A stretch of DNA of 64,000 nt from Escherichia coli (GCA_902500055.1 GCA_902500055.1_4131.1); one strand, 5' to 3'; positions 47,897 to 63,644 are shown, counted from the stretch's first letter. Translations and numbers: made by a program. The notes: generated from the letters alone by a model not told the origin.

Positions 47897-47980
47897 TATT
47901 GTTTCCTCTTAGTTGTCTTGATAAAATCTATTATGCCAGTACTATCAAACTATGTCAATAGTACTGTGATAATATTTTTA

Positions 47981-48121
47981 CTTACTTTTTGCTTTCTTTG
48001 CTGCTTCCACCTGGTCGGCCCACTCTTTACCCCATACCTGAGCGTTATAGTGATACTGACAAAGAGCAACGCCCCGCTTTAAACCAGTAATAGATTTCTG
48101 ACCACATTGACAAGTTTTCAT
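47981..48121 (-). CDS. small Cys-containing protein (46 aa), possible zinc ribbon
   Basis: Hand-translated MKTCQCGQKSITGLKRGVALCQYHY...; leader hairpin upstream. Confidence 0.35.
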
Positions 48122-48207
48122 TTTAGTTTCCTTGTAGTGGGGAGAACCATTTTCTCCCCTTGATGTAATGTATTATACTTTATTCGATTTACTTTGCAAG
48201 TACTTTT

Positions 48208-48435
48208 TTAATTTAATTCATCAAGGCAAAGGATACGCTCAACGCCCAAATCAGTTAAACTAATCGACGGCACTTGATAGGTTTCAATGTATGCTACACT
48301 TGCCCACTGACCGAACTCATTAACGGCCCAGGTATTCATTGCATTTTGCAATTCCGCACCTTCCTTGTTGGTAATGACTGCAACTACTTGTTCGTTGCCA
48401 GTAGTACCAGATACGCGAGTAATGATAATAGCCAT
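48208..48435 (-). CDS. hypothetical protein
   Basis: Track ORF trimmed to Met20 (MAIIITRVSG...). Confidence 0.5.
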   Translation of the reverse strand: MAIIITRVSGTTGNEQVVAVITNKEGAELQNAMNTWAVNEFGQWASVAYIETYQVPSISLTDLGVERILCLDELN

Positions 48436-48549
48436 TGTTTTGATTCCTTTGATTTGGAAGGAGAACCGTTTCCCCCTCTCGATGTAAAACATTATACGCT
48501 AATCTCTTAATCGTGCAAGTACTTTTTATTACTTTTTGCAAAATACTTT

Positions 48550-48650
48550 AAACGCACTCAATCGCATTCTAACGACTTTAACGCCACCAGCTAGGGCAAT
48601 GCATCAGATAAACAGTTTAATACGTTAGAATCGTTTCTAGGCGGTGCTGG
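48550..48650 (-). other. interleaved inverted repeats (A-B-A'-B')
   Basis: CGCATTCTAACG ... GCCACCAGC ... CGTTAGAATCG ... GCTGGTGGC. Confidence 0.4.
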
Positions 48651-48672
48651 TGGCCTGGTAAACGATAAACAC

Positions 48673-48698
48673 AAAAAAGCCCACTGTATAAGTGGGCT
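48673..48698 (-). terminator. intrinsic terminator after 48720..49202
   Basis: Hairpin AGCCCACTTATACAGTGGGCT followed by T-run on minus sense. Confidence 0.55.
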
Positions 48699-48719
48699 AA
48701 TGATTCAGTACTTTAATTG

Positions 48720-49202
48720 TTATGCTTCAACTTTGCGATGAGCTTCGATCCATTCCTCGCGAGTCATACCACTGGAGTTAATCGCATCCAGTACTACCGC
48801 AATGCAGTTACCACGCACCGGAATCAGATATTCTTCCCCGTTATCAAGTACTACCGCTACACGTTCTTGAATCCATTTTTTAGCTTTTACTTCTGGCTTA
48901 TCTTCACCGTACTTTTTCGCCAGGGCTTTTTGTGCCATCTCTGTAACTACTTCCAGATCCAATCCAACTACTGCCGCCTGAATACTTTCAATTGTTGCTT
49001 GTAGTTCTGCTTCACGGGCCGCCTTTGCCGCTTCAATTTCTGCCGCTTTATTTGCTTGTAGTTCTTTCGCAGTACTGTAAGCGATGTTAAAATTATTGCG
49101 TACCGCTTTCATGGTATCGTTATCCAGTTCAGCCAGGATCTCAGCCGCGACGTTAGTTTCATTTGCTACCAGTGCTTTGATGAATGATTTTACATTAGCC
49201 AT
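48720..49202 (-). CDS. Ala/Glu-rich coiled-coil protein, hypothetical
   Basis: Trimmed to Met6 (MANVKSF...) after GAGGA; central KAAEIEAAKAAREAELQATIESIQAA. Confidence 0.5.
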   Translation of the reverse strand: MANVKSFIKALVANETNVAAEILAELDNDTMKAVRNNFNIAYSTAKELQANKAAEIEAAKAAREAELQATIESIQAAVVGLDLEVVTEMAQKALAKKYGEDKPEVKAKKWIQERVAVVLDNGEEYLIPVRGNCIAVVLDAINSSGMTREEWIEAHRKVEA

Positions 49203-49408
49203 TTTATAAATCCTCAATTAAAGTTTAGTTTACGTTTATTAGTGTATCAAAGTTTTCTCGACGTGTCCAGTTTTTCGTTCGACTTACTGGCGGTCTACTT
49301 AGTGCTCCCCGTCTTGATGTAATACATTCTACGCTTTTCTGCGGTAATGTCAACTACTTTCTTAAAACTATTTTCAAAGTATCTCAGTACTACGATACTA
49401 CAAAAACA

Positions 49409-49430
49409 AAAAAAGCCCACCAGGTGGGCT
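49409..49430 (-). terminator. intrinsic terminator after 49437..49667
   Basis: Hairpin AGCCCACCTGGTGGGCT followed by T-run on minus sense. Confidence 0.5.
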
Positions 49431-49436
49431 ATGTAC

Positions 49437-49667
49437 TTAATCAGTGAGTAAAATATTAAACACTTTACCATTTAACGTTATTGGTGCACTGCTACCAGGC
49501 TCAAGATCCGTTAATATACCTGCAATCGCTTTATCATTGGCGACCTTTCCAGTGTCCAACAGTACTACAGTACTGATAAGATTAACGCTCGTTTCAATAT
49601 CATAATGCACGGCGTTAAGTAGTTGTGTAGTACTGCTTTCGTTAAGTAAAACAATTCGCTTAGTCAT
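49437..49667 (-). CDS. hypothetical protein
   Basis: 76 aa. Confidence 0.5.
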   Translation of the reverse strand: MTKRIVLLNESSTTQLLNAVHYDIETSVNLISTVVLLDTGKVANDKAIAGILTDLEPGSSAPITLNGKVFNILLTD

Positions 49668-49688
49668 GATGTTACCCCGTAGTATCTA

Positions 49689-49988
49689 TCAACGGCAATT
49701 AATAACGCCGGTATGCGTTACTTTCTCAGTATCCATTACAGTGACCGAACCGCGTTTAGTACTGGCATCATAATAAATTGTCGTGCTACCGTTTTCGTCT
49801 TCTTCATGGAACGGGCCGTTTTTAAATGCTTCCGGCTGAATCTCCAGATCCTTTAATACAATCTCGCCAGTACTTTCATCGGTCATTGCAACAGTGCACT
49901 GAATGAATTTTTCACTACTTACATCTAATGACGCATTAACAGCGAAAGAGGAAACAGATAAAGCCAGGGCGATGATTGTAATTTTCAT
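49689..49988 (-). CDS. secreted or periplasmic small protein
   Basis: 99 aa; N-terminal signal peptide MKITIIALALSVSSFAVNA with AxA-type cleavage site. Confidence 0.5.
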   Translation of the reverse strand: MKITIIALALSVSSFAVNASLDVSSEKFIQCTVAMTDESTGEIVLKDLEIQPEAFKNGPFHEEDENGSTTIYYDASTKRGSVTVMDTEKVTHTGVINCR

Positions 49989-50072
49989 TTGATTATCCTT
50001 AGTTACCAGGGGGAACCGCTCCCCCTTGCGATGTAAAATATTATACAGTACTAAAAACTATTATCAAGTACT

Positions 50073-50309
50073 TTATGATTTTTTATAAAACATTTCAGCA
50101 GTGATATTTTTACCCGTTGGCTGTACTTTATCCAGAATTTTTTGATGCCCTGGTCGTCCAAAGGAATATGATCCGTAAACAGTAAACCAGTAGTTGCCAT
50201 CAGTGTTTACATGTACAGCACAATAGGGTACGCCCCGCGATTCATCACTAGTAAAGTGTGCTACCGTTCCCGTTACATTCGAAGTCGTTGATTTGATTTG
50301 TTCAAGCAT
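50073..50309 (-). CDS. hypothetical protein
   Basis: 78 aa. Confidence 0.5.
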   Translation of the reverse strand: MLEQIKSTTSNVTGTVAHFTSDESRGVPYCAVHVNTDGNYWFTVYGSYSFGRPGHQKILDKVQPTGKNITAEMFYKKS

Positions 50310-50418
50310 TTTATTATTCCTTAGTTACCAGGGGGAACCGCTCCCCCTATGCAAAACATTATACGCGTTTAAAAACTAATTGCAAGTATTTTAATAAAAA
50401 GTATTTGAAAAATAGTTG

Positions 50419-50447
50419 TTGACAAGTGCATCCAGTACTGGCATAAT
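50419..50447 (+). promoter_or_regulatory. plus-strand sigma70-like promoter, divergent from early genes
   Basis: TTGACA-17 nt (CCAGTACTG)-CATAAT on the plus strand. Confidence 0.45.
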
Positions 50448-50448
50448 T

Positions 50449-50562
50449 ACTACATCAAGACGAAACAGTCACTAACCCACCGGGTGCCGAGATCCGTCTA
50501 TTAAATGATTCAGTACTGAAAAAGTAACGGGGAGTTATTATCTCCCCGCGTTGTTATTTTGT
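50449..50562 (+). ncRNA. candidate short plus-strand transcript
   Basis: Runs from the promoter at 50419 to hairpin CGGGGAGTTATTATCTCCCCG plus T-rich tract; contains CCCACCGGGTGC box; no ORF. Confidence 0.25.
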
Positions 50563-50775
50563 AAGGTATAAACAGAAGTCGCCTTTATTTGCTACGCCGC
50601 CAGTGTAACGCGATGAATAGTTAGAAACGTCCTGGACTTCTGCTATTACCAGGGTATCATCATTCAATTCGTCGCAGAAGCAAACGGCTGGATCTTGTAC
50701 GCCGATTTTGTCGGCATGTTCCCGCATAGATTTCACCAGTGCTTCCAGTTGGGAAAGAGTAGTGATATTAGCCAT
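50554..50775 (-). CDS. hypothetical protein
   Basis: Track ORF trimmed to Met11 (MANITTLSQ...). Confidence 0.5.
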   Translation of the reverse strand: MANITTLSQLEALVKSMREHADKIGVQDPAVCFCDELNDDTLVIAEVQDVSNYSSRYTGGVANKGDFCLYLTK

Positions 50776-50863
50776 TTTATTTTCCTCATTACCAGGGAGA
50801 ACCATTTCTCCCTTTGATGTAAACCATTATACAGTACTGAAAACTAATTGCAAGTACTTTTTT

Positions 50864-51124
50864 TCAGTATTGTTTATCGTCGTCTTCCTCGATGAATTGA
50901 CCGACGAAATGATCTACTTTCGCTTTGAGGCTTTTATAATCTTCTTCTACTTCCGTTAAACGTTCCTGGTAGTATTCCAGTGCCTCAAGATACGCCGCCT
51001 CAGCAGTTTTTGCACGCATAGCTAAATTCATTCCACGCGTTTCATCATAAAGCCAATAACCATCGGTGCACTGGCTAATAGATAATGACTTGCTTAGTGC
51101 TGTATAGCTAATTACTTTACTCAT
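50864..51124 (-). CDS. hypothetical protein
   Basis: 86 aa. Confidence 0.5.
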   Translation of the reverse strand: MSKVISYTALSKSLSISQCTDGYWLYDETRGMNLAMRAKTAEAAYLEALEYYQERLTEVEEDYKSLKAKVDHFVGQFIEEDDDKQY

Positions 51125-51181
51125 TAGATAACCCTCAGTAAAGGCGGGAACTATTACCCGCCATTATCTCAGTACTGAATA

Positions 51182-51421
51182 TTACATTCCAACCATTGCA
51201 GCACGGATCGCCGTAGTGCTATACTTGAATCCGTCCGGCGTTGTAGTAGTACCGTTGGCTTTTAATCTGCGGTACATACATTCCGCAGCAATATCTTTCG
51301 TTTTACTTTGTGCGATGCAATTTTGAGCAATCCGGTATAATGATTCATCGTTATTGATCCAAAGGCTTACATTCCAATGAGTTTTGTTTTTGTGCCCGTT
51401 GTAAGTTTTAGTACTAGCCAT
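51182..51421 (-). CDS. hypothetical protein, paralog of 53221..53460
   Basis: Trimmed to Met11 (MASTKTYNGHKNKTHWNVSLWINNDE...); shared C-terminal PDGFKYSTTAIRAAMVGM. Confidence 0.55.
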   Translation of the reverse strand: MASTKTYNGHKNKTHWNVSLWINNDESLYRIAQNCIAQSKTKDIAAECMYRRLKANGTTTTPDGFKYSTTAIRAAMVGM

Positions 51422-51511
51422 TTTTAAATCCTCGTTTGAGCGGGGAACCACTCCCCGCCTTGATGTAAAGTATTATACGCTTTTAAACTTAGTTTACAAG
51501 TACTTTTTAAA

Positions 51512-52120
51512 TTAATATTCGATTGATTCCACTACGCCATCAATAACATTGAATTGATATTCGTTACCCTCAATCAGTGCAGTAATGTTTTCAGTAGTGA
51601 ATTGATCCTCATATGCATTCTCTAAATCACGGTACAACTTACGAGATAATTCACGGATCGCATCAGTCAGTAAGTTTTCCAGATCCTCAGCCAATGCCGC
51701 CTGTTTTACAGTTAAATCAGTGTAGCGAGTATCAACGCAACCGCCTACCGTGTTTTCGTGTGCGTAGCGTGATTGGAAACGTTCTACACTCATTTCTAAA
51801 TCATCCTCGTTCAACAGGTGACGGATTGAACGATATTTCGTTAACGCCTTAACCTTGCGTAAAAACTTCTCAGCGTCAACGTGGTTAGTACTGATTGATG
51901 CACCGTCACCTTGCGACCAAAAACCACTGTATTGCAATTCAGCTTCATCTATGCCGTATTCTGGTAGTACTGTTTCTTTATAGTACTCGATAACGCCCTC
52001 AGCAAAGAAATTATCCTCACATGAACGCTCACGATCCCGAACCAGTTCAATAGCCGCCGTTTTTTGTTCTGCGTTCAGTTCAGAAAAAGCCATAACAAAA
52101 GTAGTAGTGATAGTTTTCAT
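51512..52120 (-). CDS. hypothetical protein
   Basis: 202 aa; motif SGFWSQGDGAS; preceded by duplicated leader cassette. Confidence 0.55.
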   Translation of the reverse strand: MKTITTTFVMAFSELNAEQKTAAIELVRDRERSCEDNFFAEGVIEYYKETVLPEYGIDEAELQYSGFWSQGDGASISTNHVDAEKFLRKVKALTKYRSIRHLLNEDDLEMSVERFQSRYAHENTVGGCVDTRYTDLTVKQAALAEDLENLLTDAIRELSRKLYRDLENAYEDQFTTENITALIEGNEYQFNVIDGVVESIEY

Positions 52121-52140
52121 TTTGTAACCCTCATTCAGTA

Positions 52141-52282
52141 GTTGATGTAAGTATTATACGCTTTTACTTTCTATTGTCAAACTATTTTATCAGGGGAGTT
52201 TTTCGTGTGCCTTACTCCTGGGCTACTTAACGGGAAGTTACTTATTTCGTTCCCCGTCCTGATGTAAAACATTATACGCCTT
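52141..52282 (-). repeat. duplicated ~140-bp leader cassette, copy 2
   Basis: Near-identical to 42009..42150. Confidence 0.55.
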
Positions 52283-52344
52283 TAAACATAGTTTACAAGT
52301 ACTTTTTAAAAATAGTTTTCAGTACTGAATATTAAAAAAAAGTA

Positions 52345-52373
52345 TTGACAGCATTATCAAGTACTGGCATAAT
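52345..52373 (+). promoter_or_regulatory. plus-strand sigma70-like promoter
   Basis: TTGACA-17 nt-CATAAT, followed by CCCACCGGGTGC box. Confidence 0.4.
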
Positions 52374-52547
52374 ATACCCCATGACAACAGCTAACCCACC
52401 GGGTGCACAATTGTAACTATACTAAACTAATTTTTCTATAGATACACTCCCGCACCCTATGGGCTACGGCTTATCTGCCAATGAATACATTATGCCAGTA
52501 CTGACAAAATAAGTCAATACCGGCAATTGTAAAGATTTGTAAACTGC

Positions 52548-52784
52548 TTATACTGCAATCGCGTCCAGGCTGTAATAATAATAAGTGCCGTATTGGTGTA
52601 CTTTATTACCTTTTATTTCAGTACTGAATGAATCCGAACGGTTTGCATATGATGTTAATTTAAAGTACTTTGATTTGCTGATACGTTGCCATACACCACA
52701 GATCCGCTGTAAGTAAGTAGTTTTATTCGTGGTAGTATCTTTTACGGTTTTAACTTCAGTCATATACATATTAGTCATTTTCAT
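52548..52784 (-). CDS. hypothetical protein
   Basis: 78 aa. Confidence 0.45.
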   Translation of the reverse strand: MKMTNMYMTEVKTVKDTTTNKTTYLQRICGVWQRISKSKYFKLTSYANRSDSFSTEIKGNKVHQYGTYYYYSLDAIAV

Positions 52785-52865
52785 TACTCCAGGTTATAGG
52801 CGGGAAGAGTTCCCGCTCTCGATGTAAAACATTATACGCTTTTATCAGTACGGTGCAAGTACTTT

Positions 52866-53132
52866 TTATTCAAGTACTGCAATCTTTTTAGTACGGTACA
52901 CGGTCACGCGGTTGCCCTTTCGGTCGAGCTTTATTTCTACCACTCGACGCGATACACTATCGGGACTTTTTAAGGCCGCTAACCAGTACTGTAATGATCT
53001 GGCCGTACTACGCTTTACAATGGCCCAACGTTCACCACTTGCCGATCCCGCTCCCATATCTTTAAACGTTGCCCCGTCCTGGCGTGCGGCGATCCGAGCT
53101 TGTTCACGCGTCGCAAAATACTTAATATTCAT
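52866..53132 (-). CDS. hypothetical protein, paralog of 40811..41206
   Basis: Trimmed to MNIKYFATREQARIA... Confidence 0.55.
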   Translation of the reverse strand: MNIKYFATREQARIAARQDGATFKDMGAGSASGERWAIVKRSTARSLQYWLAALKSPDSVSRRVVEIKLDRKGNRVTVYRTKKIAVLE

Positions 53133-53220
53133 GTTGTTGCCCTTATCGTTGGTGTATGAATAAAACACTATTATAAAGTACTATCCCCGTGCAATAGTAC
53201 TTTAAATAAATTCTATTCTA

Positions 53221-53460
53221 TTACATTCCAACCATAGCCGCACGGATCGCAGTAGTGCTATATTTGAATCCGTCCGGTGTTTTATCTTGTCCAGTCTGTT
53301 CTAAAAATAACATCATATGACGGGCCGCATCATTGCGATTAGTATTGGCGGCAATAAAGTCCAGGGCCAACCGATACAATCCCTCATCGTTATTAATCCA
53401 CAGGCTTACATTCCAATGAGTTTTGTTTTTGTGACCTAAGAACATTTTTGATTTAGCCAT
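53221..53460 (-). CDS. hypothetical protein, paralog of 51182..51421
   Basis: Trimmed to Met14 (MAKSKMFLGHKNKTHWNVSLWINNDE...). Confidence 0.55.
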   Translation of the reverse strand: MAKSKMFLGHKNKTHWNVSLWINNDEGLYRLALDFIAANTNRNDAARHMMLFLEQTGQDKTPDGFKYSTTAIRAAMVGM

Positions 53461-53552
53461 TTTTTTAATCCTCTTATATAGTGGGGAACTATTCCCCACC
53501 TGATGTAAAACATTATACGCTTTTATTCAGTACTGTCAAACTAATTTTTAAC

Positions 53553-53915
53553 TTATTCGTAAATTTTGCCACTGTCAGCCCATACCAGGAAACGAGGCAT
53601 ATTATCCCATGCATCTTGTTTTAAATTTAAACCGTGTAATACTTCTGTACTTTCCATTCCTGGTACTGGTTTACTATACACCGCGAAATTTTCGCCCATA
53701 TACTGATAAACCATCGTCAAATCACTGGCGATCATCTTATGGATCATCGCATCAAGCATCACGGTGGCGGCGTATTGTTCACGCTTAAGCGGCAGCATTT
53801 TAATCAGTTCGCGGTATGCGTCAATGTGAGTTTTAACCGTTGCCGCCGGAAGATCTTTCATATCGTCGCGGAAGTTAACCAGGTTAGCAATGATTTTAGT
53901 GATTTGAGTCGCCAT
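53553..53915 (-). CDS. hypothetical protein
   Basis: 120 aa; first gene of the early-like cluster. Confidence 0.55.
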   Translation of the reverse strand: MATQITKIIANLVNFRDDMKDLPAATVKTHIDAYRELIKMLPLKREQYAATVMLDAMIHKMIASDLTMVYQYMGENFAVYSKPVPGMESTEVLHGLNLKQDAWDNMPRFLVWADSGKIYE

Positions 53916-54028
53916 CGTTTTAATCTCTTAAAAGTGAGTAGGGAAGTGTTCCCGCTCTCGATGTAAAACATTATACGCTTTTTTCAGTACTGTGCAAGTA
54001 CTTTCTACAAATACTTTTAAAATAGTTT

Positions 54029-54870: not shown

Positions 54871-55925
54871 TCTGGAGGGCTAGACATATCTACGTCCAAA
54901 ATCCACCCAGGGTAACTACACCCAAAATCCGTCAGTACTATACCATAGATCTATCTTTTGAAAGGGAGTATTCAGTACTGCCATCATAGCCCTCACTATG
55001 TTACCCTAGGAGGATGAAGACCATCATGTAGTACTGAATACTGTTAGAGGGAATCCACCAGCTTGTGCTGGTGGCATAATGCATTAAATTAAAATCAGTA
55101 CTGACACCATTCTGTTAATATCAGTACTGTTTATATTACGAAAAAAGAGGTTATAAAAAGATGTACCACCCATAGGAGGAACTATCCTTTCAGTACTGTC
55201 TCACGACAGGAGGTAGAGTGAATGAATTGTTTGCGGCAACTCATCTCTCTATGTAGAACATTATACAGTACTGAATCATAATGTCAATAGCTTTCTTTCA
55301 TTATTCAGTACTGATATTCTTGAGAACTACCCGACTACAAACATCATTATATCCCACAAATCATAAACGTCCCAACGTAAATTTCAACTTTCGAAGATCC
55401 AACTTTTATTTCATAGGTACTCCAAAATTTTTAGGATCGAGATTTAGGATGGAGTACTAACCAACTTTTTGCTGGAGCCTCAAGGGGTAATGGAATTTTA
55501 CCCCGAAGGGTAAAAGGGTAATTGTAATTAAGGTGAAAGTAATAATTCAGTACTAATCATTGTGTGATTACTTTTGATTACATTTGATGTAATTTGCAAA
55601 ATGGAAAAGGAGCTTGGAAACTACAAAGTACGGCAGACTTCCTCTGCCTACTTAGTGGGATATCAGTACTGAATCATTCACACACATTTCCGTGCATTCT
55701 TGAGCAATCTTGTCTATACTAATCAGTACTGAATCATATATAATCATTCTGTGATTCTACGGTGCTCATATAAATGTTTATATATGATTACTTATGACTA
55801 CCTATGATTACGGGGTTTAGCCTGGGGAGAATCCTAGTGATCGCATTTGTCCAGGCTGAATTTTAACAATTCGCCTGTACATAAAGGTTGTTCACTAGGA
55901 GCTTCCCCTGTCTCTATGTGTTTAA

Positions 55926-56117
55926 TTACTTTCTATATATAAGCATTAAGATATAGTAGTACTGATTATACTGTACATTCTCTTTAATATTATAAGGGTC
56001 TATAGCAATCTCGGTACATCTGTTAAATGCATATCTATTAAATGCCAGTGGAATTATAGATCTAATCCATACTTGTTCATTTTCTTTTAGTTTACTTATA
56101 TAGAAGTTTTTATACAT
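55926..56117 (-). CDS. famC paralog (KEYY...LIFRY small protein)
   Basis: 63 aa; MYKNFYISKL...ILMLIYRK. Confidence 0.5.
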   Translation of the reverse strand: MYKNFYISKLKENEQVWIRSIIPLAFNRYAFNRCTEIAIDPYNIKENVQYNQYYYILMLIYRK

Positions 56118-56132
56118 AGTATTCTCTATTAA

Positions 56133-56315
56133 TTAATATGATAGTACTAGTGTTAGTACTGAGCACAATTGTTCTTTATAGTTCTTATGGTATATAGAAT
56201 CTTTTATGCACTCATTGAAGTGCCATAGGTATAATCTTGGGTCGCATTCTTTATATATTCTTACGGGGACGAATGTTAGTTTTCGTATATAGAATTCTTT
56301 ATGTTCTTTATTCAT
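56133..56315 (-). CDS. famC paralog
   Basis: 60 aa; MNKEHKEFYIRKL... Confidence 0.5.
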   Translation of the reverse strand: MNKEHKEFYIRKLTFVPVRIYKECDPRLYLWHFNECIKDSIYHKNYKEQLCSVLTLVLSY

Positions 56316-56316
56316 A

Positions 56317-56505
56317 TTAGTACCTGAATATAAGTAGGATTATGTTATAGTACTGGTTAGTACTGCAATGATTCTCTATACATCGATTAACAGTTATGGA
56401 ATAGCTATATCTGGCGTAAGCATTATCCAGCGGGATTTTACATTGAGCACTTAGAGAAAGTACAGTAGGTAGTGTATTCAAATAGAAGTCTTTGTAATTA
56501 TTCAT
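56317..56505 (-). CDS. famC paralog
   Basis: 62 aa; MNNYKDFYLNTL...IILLIFRY. Confidence 0.55.
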   Translation of the reverse strand: MNNYKDFYLNTLPTVLSLSAQCKIPLDNAYARYSYSITVNRCIENHCSTNQYYNIILLIFRY

Positions 56506-56707
56506 ACAGGAATAGTATACCTATGATACCTGAGTACAGGTTAGTACTGTTACCATCTTCGTTTGCGTTTAAAGTCATTTGAATACAATTATTGTAGCAT
56601 ACTCTGCCGAAAAATGTATTAGTACTTAAAGGTGGAGTAGTCCTTAGAAACATTTGTTCTGAGGGGCTGAGGTGTTTGGAGTAGTATTCTTTATGTTCTT
56701 TATTCAT
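56498..56707 (-). CDS. famC paralog
   Basis: 69 aa; MNKEHKEYYSKHL... Confidence 0.5.
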   Translation of the reverse strand: MNKEHKEYYSKHLSPSEQMFLRTTPPLSTNTFFGRVCYNNCIQMTLNANEDGNSTNLYSGIIGILFLYE

Positions 56708-56712
56708 ATTAG

Positions 56713-56898
56713 TTAGTGTCTGTATATAAGTAATAGTAAGAATACGTACTGCACTTGTTCATCTTTAGTATTGAGTACTGTACGTATTGCGTCATTAAAC
56801 AAGAATATAGTACTTGGGTCATGAGAATTTAAAGGGGTTCTGGGTACGGCATGTTTGTAGTTCCCTTTAACAAATTGTGTGTAGTATTCTCTATGCAT
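56713..56898 (-). CDS. famC paralog
   Basis: 61 aa; MHREYYTQFV...LLLLIYRH. Confidence 0.55.
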   Translation of the reverse strand: MHREYYTQFVKGNYKHAVPRTPLNSHDPSTIFLFNDAIRTVLNTKDEQVQYVFLLLLIYRH

Positions 56899-56899
56899 A

Positions 56900-57085
56900 T
56901 TAGTACCTATATATTAGGGCGATAATGTAGTACAATTCATATGGAATGTAATTTGGGGTGATCGCACACTGTGTATGGTAAATGAATTGTTCGGTATTTT
57001 TCTTATCCTTGATATCTATTGGGATTAGTGGTATAAGCATTTGGGAGTTTAGATCGAGATGGCTTAAGTAGAATTCTTTATGCAT
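56900..57085 (-). CDS. famC paralog
   Basis: 61 aa; MHKEFYLSHL...IIALIYRY. Confidence 0.55.
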   Translation of the reverse strand: MHKEFYLSHLDLNSQMLIPLIPIDIKDKKNTEQFIYHTQCAITPNYIPYELYYIIALIYRY

Positions 57086-57094
57086 ATTGTTCTT

Positions 57095-57283
57095 TTAGAA
57101 TACGAAAGCTAGGTACAGGGTATGATACAGTACTCGATGATAGCTATCAAAATCTAGTATACATGCTTTAGTGCACATAGTAAAGTACACTTTATCGTTT
57201 TGTGCAATGATACCGCGAGGTTTATCTAATAGATTAGTACTGAGGTACATTGGGAAATATTTTGTGTAGTATTCTTTATGCAT
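57095..57283 (-). CDS. famC paralog
   Basis: Track ORF trimmed to Met16 (MHKEYYTKYF...). Confidence 0.5.
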   Translation of the reverse strand: MHKEYYTKYFPMYLSTNLLDKPRGIIAQNDKVYFTMCTKACILDFDSYHRVLYHTLYLAFVF

Positions 57284-57284
57284 A

Positions 57285-57467
57285 TTAGTACCTGAATATA
57301 AGTAGGATAGTGTTATATAGCTGGTCATAACTACTACTATTTTCTATACTTCGTTCTATGCAGTTATTGAATCCCAGTACTGCCAAATCGTTATCCATAG
57401 GGACTTTGTATCTGGCGTAGTGTTCAAAAATGCTGGGGAGAAATTGTGTGTAGTATTCTTTGTGCAT
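57285..57467 (-). CDS. famC paralog
   Basis: 60 aa; MHKEYYTQFL...ILLIFRY. Confidence 0.55.
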   Translation of the reverse strand: MHKEYYTQFLPSIFEHYARYKVPMDNDLAVLGFNNCIERSIENSSSYDQLYNTILLIFRY

Positions 57468-57468
57468 A

Positions 57469-57660
57469 TTAGTACCTATATATTAGTAAAAGGATGTGAT
57501 ACAGTACTCGATTATAGTCTTCAATATATATCGAGGATTTAGTGCACTTAATGAAATAGTCTTTTTCGTAGTCTTTTTCTATACTCAATTGTTTTGTTGG
57601 TACAAGGTGTTGGAGATACATTGGGAGTTTCTCTATGTAGTATTCTTTGTGGTTATTCAT
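57469..57660 (-). CDS. famC paralog
   Basis: 63 aa; MNNHKEYYIEKL...ILLLIYRY. Confidence 0.55.
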   Translation of the reverse strand: MNNHKEYYIEKLPMYLQHLVPTKQLSIEKDYEKDYFIKCTKSSIYIEDYNRVLYHILLLIYRY

Positions 57661-57668
57661 ATTATGTG

Positions 57669-57848
57669 TTATTTCGTGAAAACAAGGGTTAGTACTGCAT
57701 AGTACAAGTCATACGTATCTTTAGGGTTAATAGCACCTTTAATACATTCTTTCATTACTTCATTATAGATAATTTTAGTACTGAATGTATTGGATGTTAC
57801 TATATCGGAATTAAGGTACGAGAGGTAGAATTCTTTATAAGTATTCAT
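57669..57848 (-). CDS. famC paralog (59 aa, below track cutoff)
   Basis: Hand-translated MNTYKEFYLSYL...AVLTLVFTK; coordinates approximate. Confidence 0.4.
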   Translation of the reverse strand: MNTYKEFYLSYLNSDIVTSNTFSTKIIYNEVMKECIKGAINPKDTYDLYYAVLTLVFTK

Positions 57849-57849
57849 A

Positions 57850-58032
57850 TTAGTACCTGAATGTTAGCATTACTACGTAGTACAGCATATATGGATTATC
57901 ATCGTATATGAGCGTGTACTTAGTACATTGTTGGAACATTATCTTTGCGTGATCTTTGATACCCAATGCAACGTTTGGTATATGGTGTTGTAGATGCATT
58001 GGGATTTTATCTTTGTAGTATTCTTTATACAT
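57850..58032 (-). CDS. famC paralog
   Basis: Track ORF trimmed to Met22 (MYKEYYKDKIP...VVMLTFRY). Confidence 0.5.
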   Translation of the reverse strand: MYKEYYKDKIPMHLQHHIPNVALGIKDHAKIMFQQCTKYTLIYDDNPYMLYYVVMLTFRY

Positions 58033-58684
58033 AGTTTGAAATATACGTAATGAGGTGATGAAATTTCTTATCAGTACTGATAAGTTCCTGTACATGTTTT
58101 GTTAGTTTGTACGCGTTTTTATAGAGTTCTGGATTATCGATTACAGTACTGTACATGAATTCTTCTTCTGGTGTTAATTCTTTGTTTTGTAGTTCTTTGA
58201 GGAATTGCAGTACTGTATCAGTTTCGTTAGTACGTTGCTTTTGGAAGAAGTGCATGTTATCGTGTATTTTTTCTGAACCCATGCAGTACATATCGCCGAT
58301 TTGGAATTGTGCAGTACTGATATCATGGGTGCTATTACAATTCCCGAAGAAGTATACATTCCCGAAAGATAGAATTATAGTGCACGGGATATTATCCATG
58401 TGTATATAGATAGATGCATTCTTTAGTGCTTTTGTGCTGGTATTAGTACTCAATACTTTTAAATCAGTATGATAGATATTAATAAAAGCAAGAGCTATAT
58501 TATTTTTCTTCAAGTACGATTTGAGGTTCTTAGATACGAGAACATTTCTGGATTTTTTCTTTTTATTTCGTTTCTTTAGTACATTAGGGTGATACGTATA
58601 TGCAGATGTAATAGATTCTGCTTGAATACTGTTGAGGTACTTAAAGTGCTTAAGGTATTGTTTGCTGTGTGCATTAAGTTTCAT
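58025..58684 (-). CDS. hypothetical protein with famA-like core, embedded in famC array
   Basis: 219 aa; EEEFMYSTVIDNPELY resembles the famA core. Confidence 0.5.
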   Translation of the reverse strand: MKLNAHSKQYLKHFKYLNSIQAESITSAYTYHPNVLKKRNKKKKSRNVLVSKNLKSYLKKNNIALAFINIYHTDLKVLSTNTSTKALKNASIYIHMDNIPCTIILSFGNVYFFGNCNSTHDISTAQFQIGDMYCMGSEKIHDNMHFFQKQRTNETDTVLQFLKELQNKELTPEEEFMYSTVIDNPELYKNAYKLTKHVQELISTDKKFHHLITYISNYV

Positions 58685-58694
58685 TTGGTTTCCT

Positions 58695-58874
58695 TTATAC
58701 AGATGCTAGTGCGAGGATTTCCCTGAAGGGATTATCTTTTGTTAGTGCGTGATGAATGCAGCTATTGAGATTAATATTTTTAGTACTGTTAGTTGCCAGG
58801 TTGTAGTACTTCACGAAGGTGTCGTACATGAAACGGTCTTTAATGCTTATGTGTTCTATATAGTATTCTTGCAT
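58695..58874 (-). CDS. famC paralog
   Basis: Track ORF trimmed to Met26 (MQEYYIEHIS...). Confidence 0.5.
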   Translation of the reverse strand: MQEYYIEHISIKDRFMYDTFVKYYNLATNSTKNINLNSCIHHALTKDNPFREILALASV

Positions 58875-58882
58875 ATTATTCC

Positions 58883-59062
58883 TTACATAGAGATGAGTTT
58901 CAGTACTTCTCTGTACGTGTACTTTTCGTTTTGTGCTTCTACTGTACATGATAGAAAGTATCGTTTTTTATCTCTTTTGTTCCCGACTGTGTAGTACCTT
59001 TGGAATTTATTATAGTTGTATCTATCTTTGTGCTGAAGTTTATAGATATAGAATTCTTGCAT
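58883..59062 (-). CDS. famC paralog (59 aa, below track cutoff)
   Basis: Hand-translated MQEFYIYKLQ...REVLKLISM; coordinates approximate. Confidence 0.4.
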   Translation of the reverse strand: MQEFYIYKLQHKDRYNYNKFQRYYTVGNKRDKKRYFLSCTVEAQNEKYTYREVLKLISM

Positions 59063-59070
59063 AGAGTACC

Positions 59071-59256
59071 TTAGATAGAGATTAGTTTCAGTACTTCAAT
59101 ATATGTGCGGTACTCTGCTTTAATTAAATTTGTACACACTGTAAGGGAATTTCTTTGTATAAGTTTATTGCCGCTTTTATACGCATTTCTCCACACATAG
59201 AGATGAGATCTTTCTGGCATAGATAGTTTATTTGTATAGTACTCAAATGTATTCAT
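59071..59256 (-). CDS. famC paralog
   Basis: Track ORF trimmed to Met8 (MNTFEYYTNKL...IEVLKLISI). Confidence 0.5.
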   Translation of the reverse strand: MNTFEYYTNKLSMPERSHLYVWRNAYKSGNKLIQRNSLTVCTNLIKAEYRTYIEVLKLISI

Positions 59257-59266
59257 AGTATTCTCT

Positions 59267-59452
59267 TTACATATCAATAAGTTTCAGTACTGCTCTGTAC
59301 GTGTACTTAGTTGTTAGTGTTTCTTTTATAGCAGTACTGAAGTAATGTTGTTTGTCCCTTATACTACCGCGTTTGTAGTACCATACATGGGAGTTGTGGG
59401 TGTACTTGTCCCTGTCGGATAGATTTTGGTAATAGTATAATATATGATTCAT
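59267..59452 (-). CDS. famC paralog
   Basis: 61 aa; MNHILYYYQNL...RAVLKLIDM. Confidence 0.5.
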   Translation of the reverse strand: MNHILYYYQNLSDRDKYTHNSHVWYYKRGSIRDKQHYFSTAIKETLTTKYTYRAVLKLIDM

Positions 59453-59652
59453 GGTAATGTAATTAGCCTTATTATGTTAAAGTACTCGGTTCCTGGTACA
59501 CCTTGTAGAATATTATCAACTACATTTTCTTGGTGCAGGATTAATACATTCGGTGCGGTTCTTTTAAGGTTTTTTAAAGTACTGTATTCTTGTTTAAGGA
59601 TGAACTGTACATCTTTAGGGAGAATATCTAAGTAGTACTGGTGTATGTTCAT
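59449..59652 (-). CDS. famC paralog
   Basis: Track ORF trimmed to Met4 (MNIHQYYLDILP...). Confidence 0.5.
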   Translation of the reverse strand: MNIHQYYLDILPKDVQFILKQEYSTLKNLKRTAPNVLILHQENVVDNILQGVPGTEYFNIIRLITLP

Positions 59653-59672
59653 AGTTTTCATATAGTACTCTT

Positions 59673-59858
59673 TTAGAACTTAAAGATGAGGTTCATGATA
59701 GATAAGTACTTAGTTTCAGGAAATTGATGTTCTATTGCATAACGTGTCTCCAGTCTGAAGTCAAATTTATAAAAGGGACTATTCATATCCATAGGTTCAT
59801 TGGGAAATGAATCTCTGTATTGTTTGTGCAGCTTACTACAGTAGAATTCTTTATACAT
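59673..59858 (-). CDS. famC paralog
   Basis: 61 aa; MYKEFYCSKL...IMNLIFKF. Confidence 0.5.
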   Translation of the reverse strand: MYKEFYCSKLHKQYRDSFPNEPMDMNSPFYKFDFRLETRYAIEHQFPETKYLSIMNLIFKF

Positions 59859-59859
59859 A

Positions 59860-60063
59860 TTAGTGCTCGATTAAAAGGGTTAGGATGTAATAGTATTGCA
59901 TACTTTCTACCCCTTGTACAGCATTTCTTATTTTATTATTCCTGTACGAGTTCAAGAGTTTAGGACAATGTTTGAAGTTTATATAATTATTTTGTGTATA
60001 CAGTAGGCTTTCTCGTAGACCTTTTGTTGGTAGTGCATCGATGTAGTACTGTTCAATGTTCAT
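59860..60063 (-). CDS. famC paralog
   Basis: Track ORF trimmed to Met4 (MNIEQYYIDALP...ILTLLIEH). Confidence 0.5.
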   Translation of the reverse strand: MNIEQYYIDALPTKGLRESLLYTQNNYINFKHCPKLLNSYRNNKIRNAVQGVESMQYYYILTLLIEH

Positions 60064-60068
60064 AGTGT

Positions 60069-60296
60069 TCATAGAGCTACCAGTACTAAGATTTTTGATA
60101 ATTGTTTATTGCTATCCCCGCAGATGGTGCTGTGTAAAATACTCACTACAAGGGTATCAAGTGCATTGTTCAGCATAAGGTTACATCCAGTACTGTTATG
60201 TGTTTTTAGCTCTATTAGCCACGAACAATCCGCGAGAAACTTACCGTACTCTAGTTCATTTAGAGTATTAATGTAGTACTTAAGTGTAGCTGTCAT
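60069..60296 (-). CDS. famC-like protein (first gene of array)
   Basis: Track ORF trimmed to Met19 (MTATLKYYINTLNE...). Confidence 0.45.
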   Translation of the reverse strand: MTATLKYYINTLNELEYGKFLADCSWLIELKTHNSTGCNLMLNNALDTLVVSILHSTICGDSNKQLSKILVLVAL

Positions 60297-60398
60297 GTGT
60301 AGTTCTCCTTGTATTCCTTCTATAGTACACCAGTACTGAAAGGATGTCAAGGGTTTTGTTTATGGGGTAAATATGATATAATGAATAAAGGAGGAAAT

Positions 60399-61304
60399 AT
60401 GTTACCTTTTGTTAGAATGTTTGATTATGGGAATGAAGCTCCATTACCAGCCCCAAATGGTGGTATACGAACTCAATTTACCACATCACCAGTACCTTCA
60501 GCACGAAATAACTTTGGTTATACGTATGATGCATCAAGAAATACTGCTTATATATTTGGTGGTATAATGAATACTTCGAACCAGGATAATCAGTTATGGA
60601 GTTTTAATTTAAATTCTAGAATATGGGTACAATTATCATCACCACCAGTATCCACCTATGGAAGTGCATTGTGTGCCTATCAAGGAAAAATATATTTGTT
60701 CGGTGGTTTAGGTGCAGCGAATGTTGCTAATAATAATTTTTATGTATATGACATAAGCTCTGATACATGGACACTGAATAATACAAGTGTTGGCAAACCT
60801 AACCAGGCAGTATATAGTAAGATGATTACTACAGGGGATAAGATATATTTGTGGGGTTCACCGTCTAATACTGCATTATATAGTTATACGCCGAGTACTA
60901 ATACATGGGCATCGTTAGGTACTACTGGGAATACAACAAACAATGGTGGTGGTGATATGTGCACTGATGGTACTTACATATATTTTACAGGACAAGGATC
61001 TACTCCTGCACAAAAATATCACATAGAGAGTGCGGTTTGGTCAAGAATGGCAGCAGTTGGTGGAGCTAACCCTAGTAAGATAATTTACAATAGATATGAC
61101 AAAGGTATATATGCAGTATCTTATGGTGCATTAAATTTATTAAAATATGATGCCGAGCAAAACAAATGGATACCATTAGCTATCAATACAACGTTGAGTA
61201 ATAGTACTGGTGCATTATTTGGCTCTAATAATAGTGCTGAAATATTTTACGTACTTGGTTACGACAACGGGACACGTGTTAATACGCAGTATGTTTTTAA
61301 ATAA
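60399..61304 (+). CDS. famD: Kelch-like beta-propeller protein with conserved MLPFVRMFDYGNEAP N-terminus
   Basis: Start set at ATG after AAAGGAGG; Kelch-like periodicity AYIFGG...LWSF, KIYLFGGLG...DTWT, KIYLWG...NTWA. Confidence 0.6.
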   Translation: MLPFVRMFDYGNEAPLPAPNGGIRTQFTTSPVPSARNNFGYTYDASRNTAYIFGGIMNTSNQDNQLWSFNLNSRIWVQLSSPPVSTYGSALCAYQGKIYLFGGLGAANVANNNFYVYDISSDTWTLNNTSVGKPNQAVYSKMITTGDKIYLWGSPSNTALYSYTPSTNTWASLGTTGNTTNNGGGDMCTDGTYIYFTGQGSTPAQKYHIESAVWSRMAAVGGANPSKIIYNRYDKGIYAVSYGALNLLKYDAEQNKWIPLAINTTLSNSTGALFGSNNSAEIFYVLGYDNGTRVNTQYVFK

Positions 61305-61316
61305 TTTGGAGGAAAT

Positions 61317-62466
61317 ATGTTACCTTTTGTAAGAATGTTTGATTATGGGAATGAAGCACCTACCAACTCTGGGCGTTTTAAAATATATTCCAGTGATTCT
61401 ATGTATCTTCATGATACTTATACTGATAAGTTGTATGCATCTTCTGCGACGAATTGGGGTACTGGTACAGGTGTAGCATCGAGTAAATTTATTCTTTGTG
61501 CGGAGAATGTTAAACGAGTTCTATTGGAAGATAACAGTAGTGATTGTCAATTGTATGAAGAGAAAGGTACTGGAAAAGTTTTTATCACTGGTAACACGAA
61601 GGCATTCACTGGTGTAACTGATAGAAAAACTTTGTGGACGGACTGTACTACGTGGATAACATCAAGTGGTATTAATGTTTCTGATATAAAATACATGAGT
61701 AGTTTTTATGATATGAAGGTGAATTTGATAACAAACGATGGTACATTGTATTGTTGTGGAACTAACAATATATCGAACATATCATCATTTGGTGATGGCA
61801 CAAACATTAATTCTTTTAACACATTCAAAAGAGTAGATACTATAACTTCGGTTAAAAAGGCAGTTGGTAACATTTATTTGCGAGAAGATAATACTTTATG
61901 GGGTTGTGGTTTTAACTATTACTACCAGTTGGGTACTGGTAATCAAACTTCGATTACTGGGGTGACGATGATTTCTTCGGATGTTATAGATTTTGATGTA
62001 AGTTATCAGAGTACATTTTTTTATCAAATCGGATAATAATTTGTACGCATGTGGGAAGCAGTACGGAGCACAATATGGTAATGAATTTGGCACAGGTGGA
62101 ACATCTACTAGTACTGATATTCAATACAAGACTCCTACATTATTGAGTACAGGGGTATATGGTGTATATGCATGTGTTGCTAACATGGCATCACATATTG
62201 TCAAAGCAGATGAAGTTCTATATGCTTCTGGATCGAATGGGTTTGGGCAATTAGGTGTTGGTAATAATAATAATCAGTACTCCTATACTCCTTCATATAC
62301 TTCGTTTAATACTTCGTGTAATTTGGTACGCACTCCATCTGGTTCACTTATACTTACTGACACTTCGAAGTTATATTATTCGGGTGCTTCATTTGTAGTA
62401 ATGGGTGGTAGTGCTGGACAGAACGTTCTTAATTATACCGAAGTCGATATGTCATTTGTGCAGTAA
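61317..62466 (+). pseudogene. famD: RCC1-like repeat protein split by a frameshift in a T7 run
   Basis: ORFs 61317..62036 and 62041..62466 both carry RCC1-like repeats (LYCCGTNN, LWGCGFNYYYQLGTGN; LYACGKQYG, LYASGSNGFGQLGVGN); a 1-nt shift in TTTTTTT at 62016-62022 joins them. Confidence 0.5.
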
Positions 62467-62475
62467 ATTAATATA

Positions 62476-62500
62476 CCAGTACTTGATACTGGCTTTTTTT
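62476..62500 (+). terminator. intrinsic terminator
   Basis: Hairpin CCAGTA-CTTGA-TACTGG followed by TTTTTTT. Confidence 0.6.
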
Positions 62501-62534
62501 GATTAAATATAGTATAATGAATAAAGGAGGAAAT

Positions 62535-63644
62535 ATGTTACCTTTTGTAAGAATGGTTAAGTACGGGAATATTGCACCAGTACCGAAAAAAATAAAGAAA
62601 GTTATAGCAGGATATGATAATTTATATGTACTATATGGTGATGGTTCGCTATATGGTTGTGGAATCAATAACTATCAACAGTTAAATATTGATGGAACTG
62701 CTACACAAAATAATTGGGTACTAATTACCAATGGTGTTAGTAATGCATGGGCTGGTGGATACAATATTTTATATTTGAAAGAAGATAAATTTATAATGCA
62801 CGGAACTAATGTCTCATTAGGTTTAGGAAATACTACAATTCCATTAGGTGGAGTAGATGTAACTTCTTCATTCCCAGATATCTCTAATATTAAAATGATA
62901 TCCATTGGTTTTGATTCAATGCACTATGTTAGTGCTGATGGTACAACTGTATATGGAAGAGGTATGAACACAAATGGTTCTGTTGGTTCAGGTAGTACTT
63001 ACTCACAGAGTACTTTCACTTCAGTACTGAATAATGGAACTAATCAGGTTATTGATATATTTGGTAACGTTAATAATACAGTGCTTCTAACATCGAATGG
63101 TGAGCTTCGAGCATGTGGGACAAGTGCTTATGGTTCTATAGGAAATGAAACTGGTAAGTGGACATCGTTTGGTTTAAAATTATCTGGCACTAAAATAATG
63201 GGTGGTAATGGGTATAGTACGCTTGCATATACAAATTCGGGAATGTACCACTCAGGGTGGCAGTTAAATGGGGAACTAGGAAATGGTTTAGATACTAACG
63301 TACAGGTATATCCATTTCAATTTAACTCTAAAACGATAGATAGCAAGATAGATAAAATTGCCAAATCATCATCTGGGTCATATGTTAACATGTACTCAAC
63401 AACAGAAGGAAAGATATATACGACAGGTTCGTTTGGTAAAAACGGGTCAACTACTGCATTGAATTTGTTCACCAATACATTAACACTTATAAATTACAAT
63501 CCAGATACCGCCTCGTTGTATACGTGCACAAACTTCAGTGTTGTGTATGATGGTAATGAAACTATTGCTGTAAGTGGTAGTCCTACATATGTACCAGGGG
63601 GCGTTGCCGCTAATAGATGGACTACAATTCCATTACCCAAGTAA
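62535..63644 (+). CDS. famD: RCC1-like repeat beta-propeller protein with MLPFVRMVKYGN N-terminus
   Basis: Start at ATG after AAAGGAGG; repeats LYGCGINNYQQLNIDG, VYGRGMNTNGSVGSG, LRACGTSAYGSIGNE, MYHSGWQLNGELGNG. Confidence 0.6.
   Translation: MLPFVRMVKYGNIAPVPKKIKKVIAGYDNLYVLYGDGSLYGCGINNYQQLNIDGTATQNNWVLITNGVSNAWAGGYNILYLKEDKFIMHGTNVSLGLGNTTIPLGGVDVTSSFPDISNIKMISIGFDSMHYVSADGTTVYGRGMNTNGSVGSGSTYSQSTFTSVLNNGTNQVIDIFGNVNNTVLLTSNGELRACGTSAYGSIGNETGKWTSFGLKLSGTKIMGGNGYSTLAYTNSGMYHSGWQLNGELGNGLDTNVQVYPFQFNSKTIDSKIDKIAKSSSGSYVNMYSTTEGKIYTTGSFGKNGSTTALNLFTNTLTLINYNPDTASLYTCTNFSVVYDGNETIAVSGSPTYVPGGVAANRWTTIPLPK

Follow-up and report, generated by a model that had tools for sequence, protein, structure and literature searches.

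famC, a putative early operon of tandem small genes beside the terminal repeat of an Asteriusvirus genome

Introduction

The hyperplastic regions of T4-type phages carry clusters of ORFans, which are small, early, non-essential genes of unknown function that are inserted, deleted and replaced as whole genes by recombination at short conserved flanks, and that are expressed through the host sigma70 (PMC2839356, PMC4122927). In the present work we analyzed a 64-kb stretch of phage DNA (hereafter, the window) whose positions 55926-60296 hold famC, a tandem array of small open reading frames (ORFs) that appears to resemble these clusters in all of the above respects. famC differs from them in that it has no intergenic cassette, its gaps running from -8 to +15 nt, and in that its patch of homology is the coding sequence of the protein termini; moreover, its genes are mutually paralogous and share one promoter. 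In the elements known as PeSLs in T4-type phages, a strong sigma70-like promoter is combined with AT-rich sequence upstream of it and with a stem-loop of polyG/polyC (PMC2839356, PMC4122927). PeSL-like cassettes (A-rich, TTGCA, N17, TATAAT, G5/C5 stem-loop) were found in the phage studied here in the adjacent terminal repeat only, with none in famC.

Dense sets of small early genes at a genome end, transcribed by the polymerase of the host and regarded as means to subvert it, are also represented by the host-takeover module of Bacillus phage SPO1 and the pre-early genes of T5, both of which lie in terminal repeats. famC is comparable to them in these features, but its last stop codon, at 55926, lies 274 bp outside the terminal repeat, and it would form a single operon with weak Shine-Dalgarno (SD) sequences, as opposed to the strong promoters and strong SDs of SPO1. 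Profile searches revealed no homology of famC members to SPO1 or T5 proteins. The multigene families of African swine fever virus and the gene "accordions" of poxviruses are likewise located near genome termini. Bacillus phage G, in turn, carries ~35 zinc-ribbon copies as a lineage-specific expansion (PMC7824862). Like famC, all these expansions consist of tandem paralogues near genome ends whose copy number varies, and they are usually read as adaptations to host defences. The proteins involved are however unrelated to those of famC, which is made of ~60-aa units in what would be one translationally linked operon.

Comparable in setting is the Rak2-like phage CBB, whose RpoD-like promoters, accompanied by UP-like elements, are concentrated where short hypothetical ORFs lie beside and within the ~22-kb terminal repeat; its authors suspected the early, host-takeover genes there (PMC5259590). 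CBB belongs to a different genus, tblastn revealed no famC homologue beyond the 36 matching Escherichia and Salmonella phage records, and no tandem family of 60-aa proteins was described there (PMC5259590).

famC is an undescribed lineage-specific tandem family of small, probably early phage genes, distinctive in its probable arrangement as one translationally linked operon. Taken as a whole, we consider it probable that famC is one early polycistronic operon of 20 genes, made up of reshuffling paralogues that may serve in host takeover or anti-defence, and we hold the genetic architecture of the array alone with greater confidence.

Results

Composition, source and distribution of the array

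Every gene of the array lies on the minus strand. There are 19 small ORFs, of 59-75 aa and in units of ~190 bp, and one ORF of 219 aa, here lettered A to T from the first cistron to the last (Table 1). An initial annotation of this DNA had described about 19 tandem ORFs of ~60 aa, which was borne out by our analysis, and had assigned to them the common motif M(H/N)KE(Y/F)Y...LI(F/Y)R(Y). This motif held for the 12 core members (C and J-T), in the form M(H/N/Y)KE(Y/F)Y ... F..C ... Y..ILxLI(F/Y)RY, and did not hold for the other seven, which fall into distant subgroups: the four genes E-H share the C-terminus ...EVLKLISM, and the two genes B and D the N-terminus MxTMNIxQYY.

A hidden Markov model (HMM) of the family matched the 19 small ORFs and no other ORF in the window. 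The independent profile phrog_11711 (PHROGs v4) matched 12 of the 19 at E <= 0.01 (best 5e-26), leaving the other seven unmatched. When an HMM of the core alone was run on the seven non-core genes (60069, 59860, 59449, 59267, 59071, 58883 and 58695), E values of 1e-5 to 0.011 were obtained in this seven-sequence database, and hhalign linked the core to the E-H subgroup (E 7e-4) and to the B/D subgroup (E 4e-4), with no significant similarity between the core and gene A. The similar four-helix predictions for genes A and M and their conserved context support, without proving, a common ancestry of all 19. Tandem Repeats Finder did not detect the array because its units are too diverged.

Gene I, the 219-aa ORF, matched phrog_29152 over its full length (E 1.9e-113), showed no Pfam domain and had a lineage restriction equal to that of the small genes. 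Both PHROGs entries are automatic clusters of unknown function that carry neither a name nor a description of an array. Gene I had initially been described as interrupting the array with a core like that of famA, a family of larger genes elsewhere in the window (see below). The interruption was recovered in all relatives, but the resemblance came down to 22 columns in which hhalign aligned EEEFMYSTVIDNP against EExxFQxSLV (EE..F(Q/M).S(L/T)V; probability 79%, E 1.6e-5). Since famA HMMs gave no significant match to the 219-aa protein beyond this motif (E 0.13-0.24, negative scores), membership of gene I in famA was not supported.

The 4.7 kb around the array showed 90-97% DNA identity to 36 GenBank phage records, those assigned to a genus being Asteriusvirus; judged by this identity, the source of the window is a jumbo coliphage of the Asteriusvirus 121Q/PBECO4/slurp01/phAPEC6 group, whose genomes measure 350-386 kb. 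By tblastn, famC was detected in 36 of 50,697 phage records, all of them Escherichia or Salmonella phages of this group. An exhaustive HMM search of 1.84 billion representative proteins yielded 32 representative clusters, all of ~60 aa, and the two of them that were traced to contigs both lay in the same array architecture. Searches of Pfam, PHROGs, NCBIfam and PDB-sequence profiles gave nothing informative on the function of famC, nor did any protein of known function emerge as a relative by structure or sequence. The tblastn matches often fell in unannotated sequence. The deposited annotations of slurp01, BF17 and vB_Ec-M-J omit many small genes (in BF17, 11 of 22 small family genes are annotated, plus the 219-aa gene), and the famC family is therefore under-counted in public protein sets.

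Gene junctions and translation

The initial annotation had proposed that the genes are joined by a near-identical sequence of ~28 nt. We scored the 19 junctions against the 26-nt junction sequence given there, which was exact at two of them, matched at 20-21 of 26 positions at three and at 8-17 of 26 at the remaining 14, so that the proposal stood for five junctions and failed for the others. Read in frame, CCTACTTATATTCAGGTACTAAT-ATG comprises the codons for (I)LLIFRY, a TAA stop, one T and the ATG of the next gene, and the TATATT that it includes spells Leu-Ile-Phe (CTT ATA TTC) within the conserved C-terminus. Conservation was limited to those sites that combine a canonical upstream C-terminus with a 1-nt gap. 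What had appeared as a conserved junction is thus protein-level conservation, namely a conserved C-terminus, a stop and a conserved N-terminus, seen in the DNA.

From A to T, the stop-to-start gaps were -4, 1, 11, -4, 10, 8, 8, 10, -8, 1, 8, 1, 1, 9, 1, 5, -8, 1 and 15 nt, with seven junctions of the TAAT-ATG type, two of the ATGA type and two 8-nt overlaps. An SD had been reported as lacking at the junctions. Internal SDs were indeed weaker, with a median duplex energy with the anti-SD of -3.7 kcal/mol compared to -5.6 kcal/mol for 56 large ORFs (p 6e-5), yet they were not absent, being stronger than random sites (-1.7 kcal/mol, p 0.03); AGGT, AAGG or AAGGA was present 5-6 nt upstream at eight junctions, and the first gene has AAGGAG. 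The AGGT element (-3.8 kcal/mol when paired with the anti-SD) arises from codon choice, given that a penultimate AGG puts it at 6 nt from the start codon of the following gene. The penultimate arginine was encoded by AGG, otherwise a minor codon, in 5 of 7 cases, the figure for the rest of the array being 7 of 44 (Fisher p 0.005), and AGG accounted for 31 of 241 arginines in the 56 large ORFs and for 27 of 31 at the junctions of relatives. Start regions (-25 to +25) were less folded than random array sites (-2.2 vs. -4.0 kcal/mol, p 0.003) and A-rich (ATG CAT AAA GAA ...).

Translational coupling, which the initial annotation had offered as an alternative, fits the gap range, the seven TAAT-ATG junctions and the presence of a single promoter and a strong AAGGAG before the first gene only. 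The geometry of the array has the look of termination-reinitiation coupling aided by weak SDs. According to the mechanism that we propose, the host sigma70 RNA polymerase would start at TTGACA-17-TACTAT (60350-60322) and read all 20 cistrons, the first of which would be translated from the strong AAGGAG. At each downstream cistron, ribosomes would terminate 1-15 nt before the next ATG, or overlapping it, and then re-initiate, probably aided by the weak AGGT or AAGG in the last codons of the preceding gene and by the unstructured A-rich starts.

The same operon could instead have internal cistrons that are initiated independently, by 30S subunits binding the weak SDs and the unstructured A-rich starts, with no coupling between neighbours. 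The SD-like elements 5-6 nt upstream at eight junctions would serve such initiation, the start regions are significantly unstructured, and at eight junctions the gaps of 8-15 nt exceed classical overlaps. The cistrons at 57850, 57469 and 56498, however, are devoid of any SD-like element (duplex energy >= 0 kcal/mol), and their starts, which lie 8 nt inside the preceding gene and 8 nt and 5 nt past its stop, respectively, have a geometry typical of coupling. We regard independent initiation as somewhat unlikely, and as the best surviving of the alternatives.

Selection, predicted structure and reshuffling of the genes

The number of family copies in five related phages was 15, 17, 20, 21 and 22, all of them intact and co-oriented. 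Although the relatives diverge by 5-20% and show many indels, each of them keeps all its units open and in register. The pooled ratio of nonsynonymous to synonymous changes (dN/dS, Nei-Gojobori) against five relatives was 0.30-0.40, third-position changes were the most frequent, and purifying selection was detectable in every pairwise comparison. Metagenomic relatives that are ~70-85% identical had the same plan, consisting of a Kelch gene, a divergent promoter, a 75-aa gene, small genes, a gene of 223-224 aa and more small genes.

An AlphaFold2 model of the gene M product, based on a 77-sequence alignment, showed a four-helix domain (helices 3-7, 12-19, 27-42 and 46-58) with a predicted local distance difference test score (pLDDT) of 93.8 and a predicted template modeling score of 0.77, and a comparable four-helix model was obtained for gene A (pLDDT 90.1). 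The conserved columns are apolar or aromatic, comprising the N-terminal KEYY including Y6, F..C and the C-terminal Y..ILLLI run, and the remainder is variable; the isoelectric points of the proteins range from 5.5 to 9.6. No transmembrane segment was found in famC proteins, the maximal Kyte-Doolittle mean over 19 residues being <= 1.23. The idea that the hydrophobic C-terminus marks membrane proteins was rejected, since there is no stretch of transmembrane length and the segment forms helix 4 of the modelled bundle. Collectively, these computations indicate that the famC ORFs are true genes, predicted to encode soluble four-helix proteins of ~60 aa.

Comparison with E9.1, G17, BF17 and TH47 placed the colinearity breaks <=26 nt from gene starts or ends, and the strings of orthologue order revealed insertions, deletions and re-ordering of whole genes. 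Unequal exchange at gene ends would be a sufficient mechanism for this reshuffling, because paralogues share junction stretches of 52-69 nt at 63-88% identity and T4-type recombination requires <50 bp of homology (PMC2839356). The junction would then double as a homology patch for the recombinational gain, loss and reshuffling of whole genes, and the conserved protein termini would simultaneously make up the folding core, hand ribosomes over and provide the patch for recombination. Seen in this way, famC neatly illustrates the way in which a lineage-specific family of tiny proteins can be assembled and reshuffled in a jumbo phage.

Real genes may still be largely dispensable, and famC has to be weighed as a neutral "ORFan nursery" that arises from recombination-prone duplication and has no specific host-directed role. 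Such a nursery is unlikely in view of the purifying selection seen in every pairwise comparison, of the conservation of the promoter and SD, and of an architecture (75-aa first gene, two sub-arrays, central gene of 219-224 aa) that is kept in loci only ~70-80% identical. In its favour are the variable copy number (15 to 22) of near-identical phages, the ready loss of single paralogues, the restriction of the family to one genus and a constraint that is only moderate.

Transcription of the array

A sigma70-like promoter precedes gene A (Table 1), with a predicted transcription start near 60315. Its hexamers, together with AAGGAG, were conserved in nine related loci, including ones that are ~80% identical, and two of the nine have TACAAT. 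Within the array region, 22 sigma70-like sites were counted as compared to 32.9 +/- 5.3 in shuffles, that is, no excess.

The cassettes of the terminal repeat (~70 nt) are composed of an A-rich tract, AAAAAGTACTTGCA, ~17 nt, TATAAT, a GAGGGGGAAA...TTCCCCCTC stem-loop, an SD and ATG. With an HMM of this cassette, 28 copies passed the threshold of E < 0.001; each of them was on the minus strand and inside the terminal repeat, at 35.9-54.0 kb (35909-54007). A few weaker partial matches were likewise outside the array, and between 55926 and 60296 the early promoter cassette gave chance-level matches only (E >= 5.7). The contrast is clear: by its sequence, the terminal repeat is divided into numerous small units driven by cassettes, whereas in famC one promoter is followed by 20 abutting cistrons. 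Early expression of famC is suggested by its continuity with the cassette-rich terminal repeat and by the context described for CBB.

That each unit is instead its own transcription unit, TATATT or TATATA ~11-13 nt upstream of the ATG serving as a -10 element of (near-)leaderless mRNAs as had been suggested initially for TATATT, is highly improbable: although the SDs are weak and, at five junctions, TATATT (two of them) or TATATA lies 9-11 nt before the ATG and would place the start a few nt before the AUG, the hexamer consists of Leu-Ile-(Phe/Tyr) codons, lacks a -35 or an extended -10 and is absent at 14 of the 19 junctions, promoter-like sites stay below the shuffles, the early promoter model of the phage finds nothing in the array, and one strong conserved promoter stands ahead of it.

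A possible second code carried by the word AGTACT

The hexamer AGTACT occurred 272 times in the window as compared to 21.5 expected from base composition, and was densest at 35056-60296. By region, 36 copies were found in famC (1.4 expected, 25x), 139 in the terminal repeat (6.6 expected, 21x) and 65 at 1-20 kb (6.7 expected). In 50 kb of late structural genes (vB_Ec-M-J 150000-199999), where it is the top 6-bp palindrome, it was present 106 times vs. 16.9 expected (6x). Other 6-bp palindromes were mostly avoided in that region, at least eight of them, including ACCGGT, AGCGCT, AGGCCT, CAGCTG and CCATGG, being at zero vs. 2-6 expected, which is consistent with strong selection against restriction sites. 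The flanks of AGTACT are symmetric (core CAGTACTG), 49% of the copies having C at -1 and 46% having G at +1, with a T-rich 5' and an A-rich 3' side.

Sites in famC were distributed over the three reading frames (14, 9 and 12). Synonymous-codon shuffles that kept proteins and codon usage gave 8.6 +/- 2.5 sites vs. 35 observed in famC, and 21 +/- 4.1 vs. 72 observed in the 56 large ORFs. Codon choice is biased toward the word, with TAC used for 61% of tyrosines in famC vs. 43% in the large ORFs and GTA for 74% vs. 42% of valines. AGTACT sites were conserved beyond background 6-mers in nine of nine pairwise comparisons (e.g., 70% vs. 46%). The word is also present in promoters, within the spacer of that of famC and, in the cassettes of the terminal repeat, within the spacer and the -35 flank. 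Pairs 10-29 nt apart were in excess, with no periodic spacing beyond that. A reading of paired CAGTACTG as LexA boxes was rejected, as no pair had the 18-nt spacing needed for CTG-N10-CAG. No paper on AGTACT enrichment was found in the literature, and the ten restriction enzymes used on fEgEco12 DNA did not include ScaI (PMC13070987).

From its distribution, AGTACT looks like a selected, double-strand-symmetric recognition word. No other 6-bp palindrome is strongly enriched in this genome, from which palindromes are otherwise purged. It is possible, and we propose it tentatively, that the array and the whole genome are under a second, non-protein code in which AGTACT would be recognized by a phage system not yet described. 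Its reader could be a protein that binds or condenses DNA as a dimer, a system for self-marking or modification, or a factor that regulates early promoters, several of which include the word. The word may partly explain the Tyr-rich motifs (KEYY, QYY, xVL) of famC proteins, and this side finding may matter more than the array itself.

The word could also be taken to mean that the ORFs are incidental and that the region is a DNA-level element beside the terminal repeat (AGTACT-rich binding, condensation or packaging) with no functional proteins, in keeping with its 25-fold over-representation in three frames beyond synonymous-codon shuffles, its conservation above background and the position of the array against the repeat boundary, but this is made very unlikely by units that stay open and in register in diverged relatives, by the dN/dS values and by high-confidence, alignment-supported folds, and the enrichment is genome-wide, bona fide late structural genes included, hence no argument against coding.

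Possible function and weight of the evidence

A role of famC as host-takeover or anti-defence effectors is put forward by analogy, as a possibility that we would not yet call probable, because the genes lie in an early one-directional block, have an orphan fold with a conserved core and a variable surface, are confined to one genus and change rapidly in copy number. The paralogues might then form a diversifying set of early effectors, each perhaps tuned to a different host target. Virion mass spectrometry of phAPEC6 listed the neighbours gp549 and gp551 and no array member (PMC7247149), which we count as support for famC products not being virion proteins. If such a function is true, famC with its 15-22 variable copies would amount to a ready collection of small proteins that bind targets in E. 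coli, and could account for the different host ranges of therapeutic Asteriusvirus isolates.

Five points weigh against the reading of famC as one early, translationally coupled operon of paralogous effectors. In the literature searched, transcript, ribosome-profiling and proteomic data, including infected-cell transcriptomes or proteomes, were found for no Asteriusvirus, and the famC family was not mentioned; we therefore infer timing, operon structure and translation alike. The weak SDs, together with the open start regions, could also serve independent initiation, with no true coupling. By the profile comparisons, seven of the 19 small genes are weakly related to the core. A dN/dS of 0.3-0.4 means only moderate constraint. 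Finally, part of the nucleotide conservation of the array stems from the superimposed AGTACT word and not from the proteins.

Layout of the window and neighbouring genes

Asteriusvirus-type phages have direct terminal repeats of ~20-21 kb (PMC13070987, PMC11895373), and in the vB_Ec-M-J record the repeat is annotated at 1-21525. It was placed in the window by aligning both of these annotated ends, genome position 1 corresponding to window position 55652 and the repeat end, 21525, to ~35056. Because the ends map there, the alignment indicates that window positions 35056-55652 are the ~20.6-kb direct terminal repeat, present once, that is, collapsed in the assembly. The coordinates of all features are given in Table 1.

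Table 1. Positions of the famC genes and of associated features in the window
Feature	Position	Strand	Description
Sigma70-like promoter	60322..60350	-	TTGACA 60350-60345, 17-nt spacer with CAGTACTG 60338-60331, TACTAT 60327-60322; 10/12 consensus match
Shine-Dalgarno AAGGAG	60305..60310	-	8 nt before first ATG; -8.5 kcal/mol, strongest of the array; kept in all relatives
Gene A	60069..60296	-	First cistron (75 aa); four-helix protein by prediction; opens the array in every relative
Gene B	59860..60072	-	70 aa, MNTMNIEQYY... subgroup; ATGA overlap with A
Gene C	59673..59858	-	61 aa, core member (MYKEFY...LIFKF)
Gene D	59449..59661	-	70 aa, subgroup of B; 36% identity to B
Gene E	59267..59452	-	61 aa, subgroup ending ...VLKLIDM; ATGA overlap with D
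Gene F	59071..59256	-	61 aa, E-H subgroup
Gene G	58883..59062	-	59 aa, E-H subgroup
Gene H	58695..58874	-	59 aa, E-H subgroup; start set at internal ATG 58874, AAGGA 5 nt upstream
Gene I	58025..58684	-	219 aa, basic (pI 9.4), phrog_29152, mid-array
Gene J	57850..58032	-	60 aa, core member; start 8 nt inside gene I
Gene K	57669..57848	-	59 aa, core member
Gene L	57469..57660	-	63 aa, core member
Gene M	57285..57467	-	60 aa, core member; modelled four-helix protein
Gene N	57095..57283	-	62 aa, core member
Gene O	56900..57085	-	61 aa, core member
Gene P	56713..56898	-	61 aa, core member
Gene Q	56498..56707	-	69 aa, core member
Gene R	56317..56505	-	62 aa, core member; 8-nt overlap with Q
Gene S	56133..56315	-	60 aa, core member
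Gene T	55926..56117	-	63 aa, core member, last cistron
Example junction CCTACTTATATTCAGGTACTAAT-ATG	57281..57306	-	Gene M end to gene N start; identical copy at 56313-56338
Structured untranslated stretch	~55640-55930 (291 nt)	-	Last famC stop to terminal-repeat boundary; -75.5 kcal/mol, z -3.97
Example cassettes	35909-35979, 39105-39175, 52798-52868, 53937-54007	-	Cassette HMM

On the minus strand, the famC array (60296-55926) is followed by the terminal repeat (55652-35056), then by a 30-member family of 65-90-aa genes (34958-29080) and by a family of ~37 genes of 100-230 aa (29-1 kb). All genes below 60.3 kb share one direction of transcription and the Kelch/RCC1-repeat genes from 60397 up are divergent, famC being located between these divergent virion genes and the right copy of the terminal repeat. 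The structured stretch past the last famC stop contains a long imperfect hairpin (CAGGGGAAGCUCCUAGUGA...UCACUAGGAUUCUCCCCAGG) plus a hairpin closed by two CAGTACTG copies, and may be a transcription terminator or boundary, a packaging boundary or a signal for genome-end formation. Known RNAs and tRNAs were searched for across the 64 kb and none was found.

The second tandem family on the minus strand comprises 30 ORFs of ~65-90 aa at 29080-34958, plus 14857-15244 and 27325-27779. Its main array of 26 abutting or overlapping genes begins directly past the terminal repeat, which means that there are small-gene arrays on both sides of the repeat. famA, also on the minus strand (915-29090), consists of ~37 ORFs of 100-230 aa whose common part is mainly the EExxFQxSLV motif, with F and Q invariant; its proteins had no Pfam match.

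Three paralogous Kelch/RCC1-repeat genes are present on the plus strand (60397-63644), all with MLPFVRMFDYGNEAP as their N-terminus. The first of them truly starts at the ATG near 60397, which has a GGAGG SD, and not at the TTG at 60309. The phAPEC6 homologues of these genes, gp549 and gp551, are annotated as "DNA condensation protein" and were found in virions by mass spectrometry (PMC7247149).

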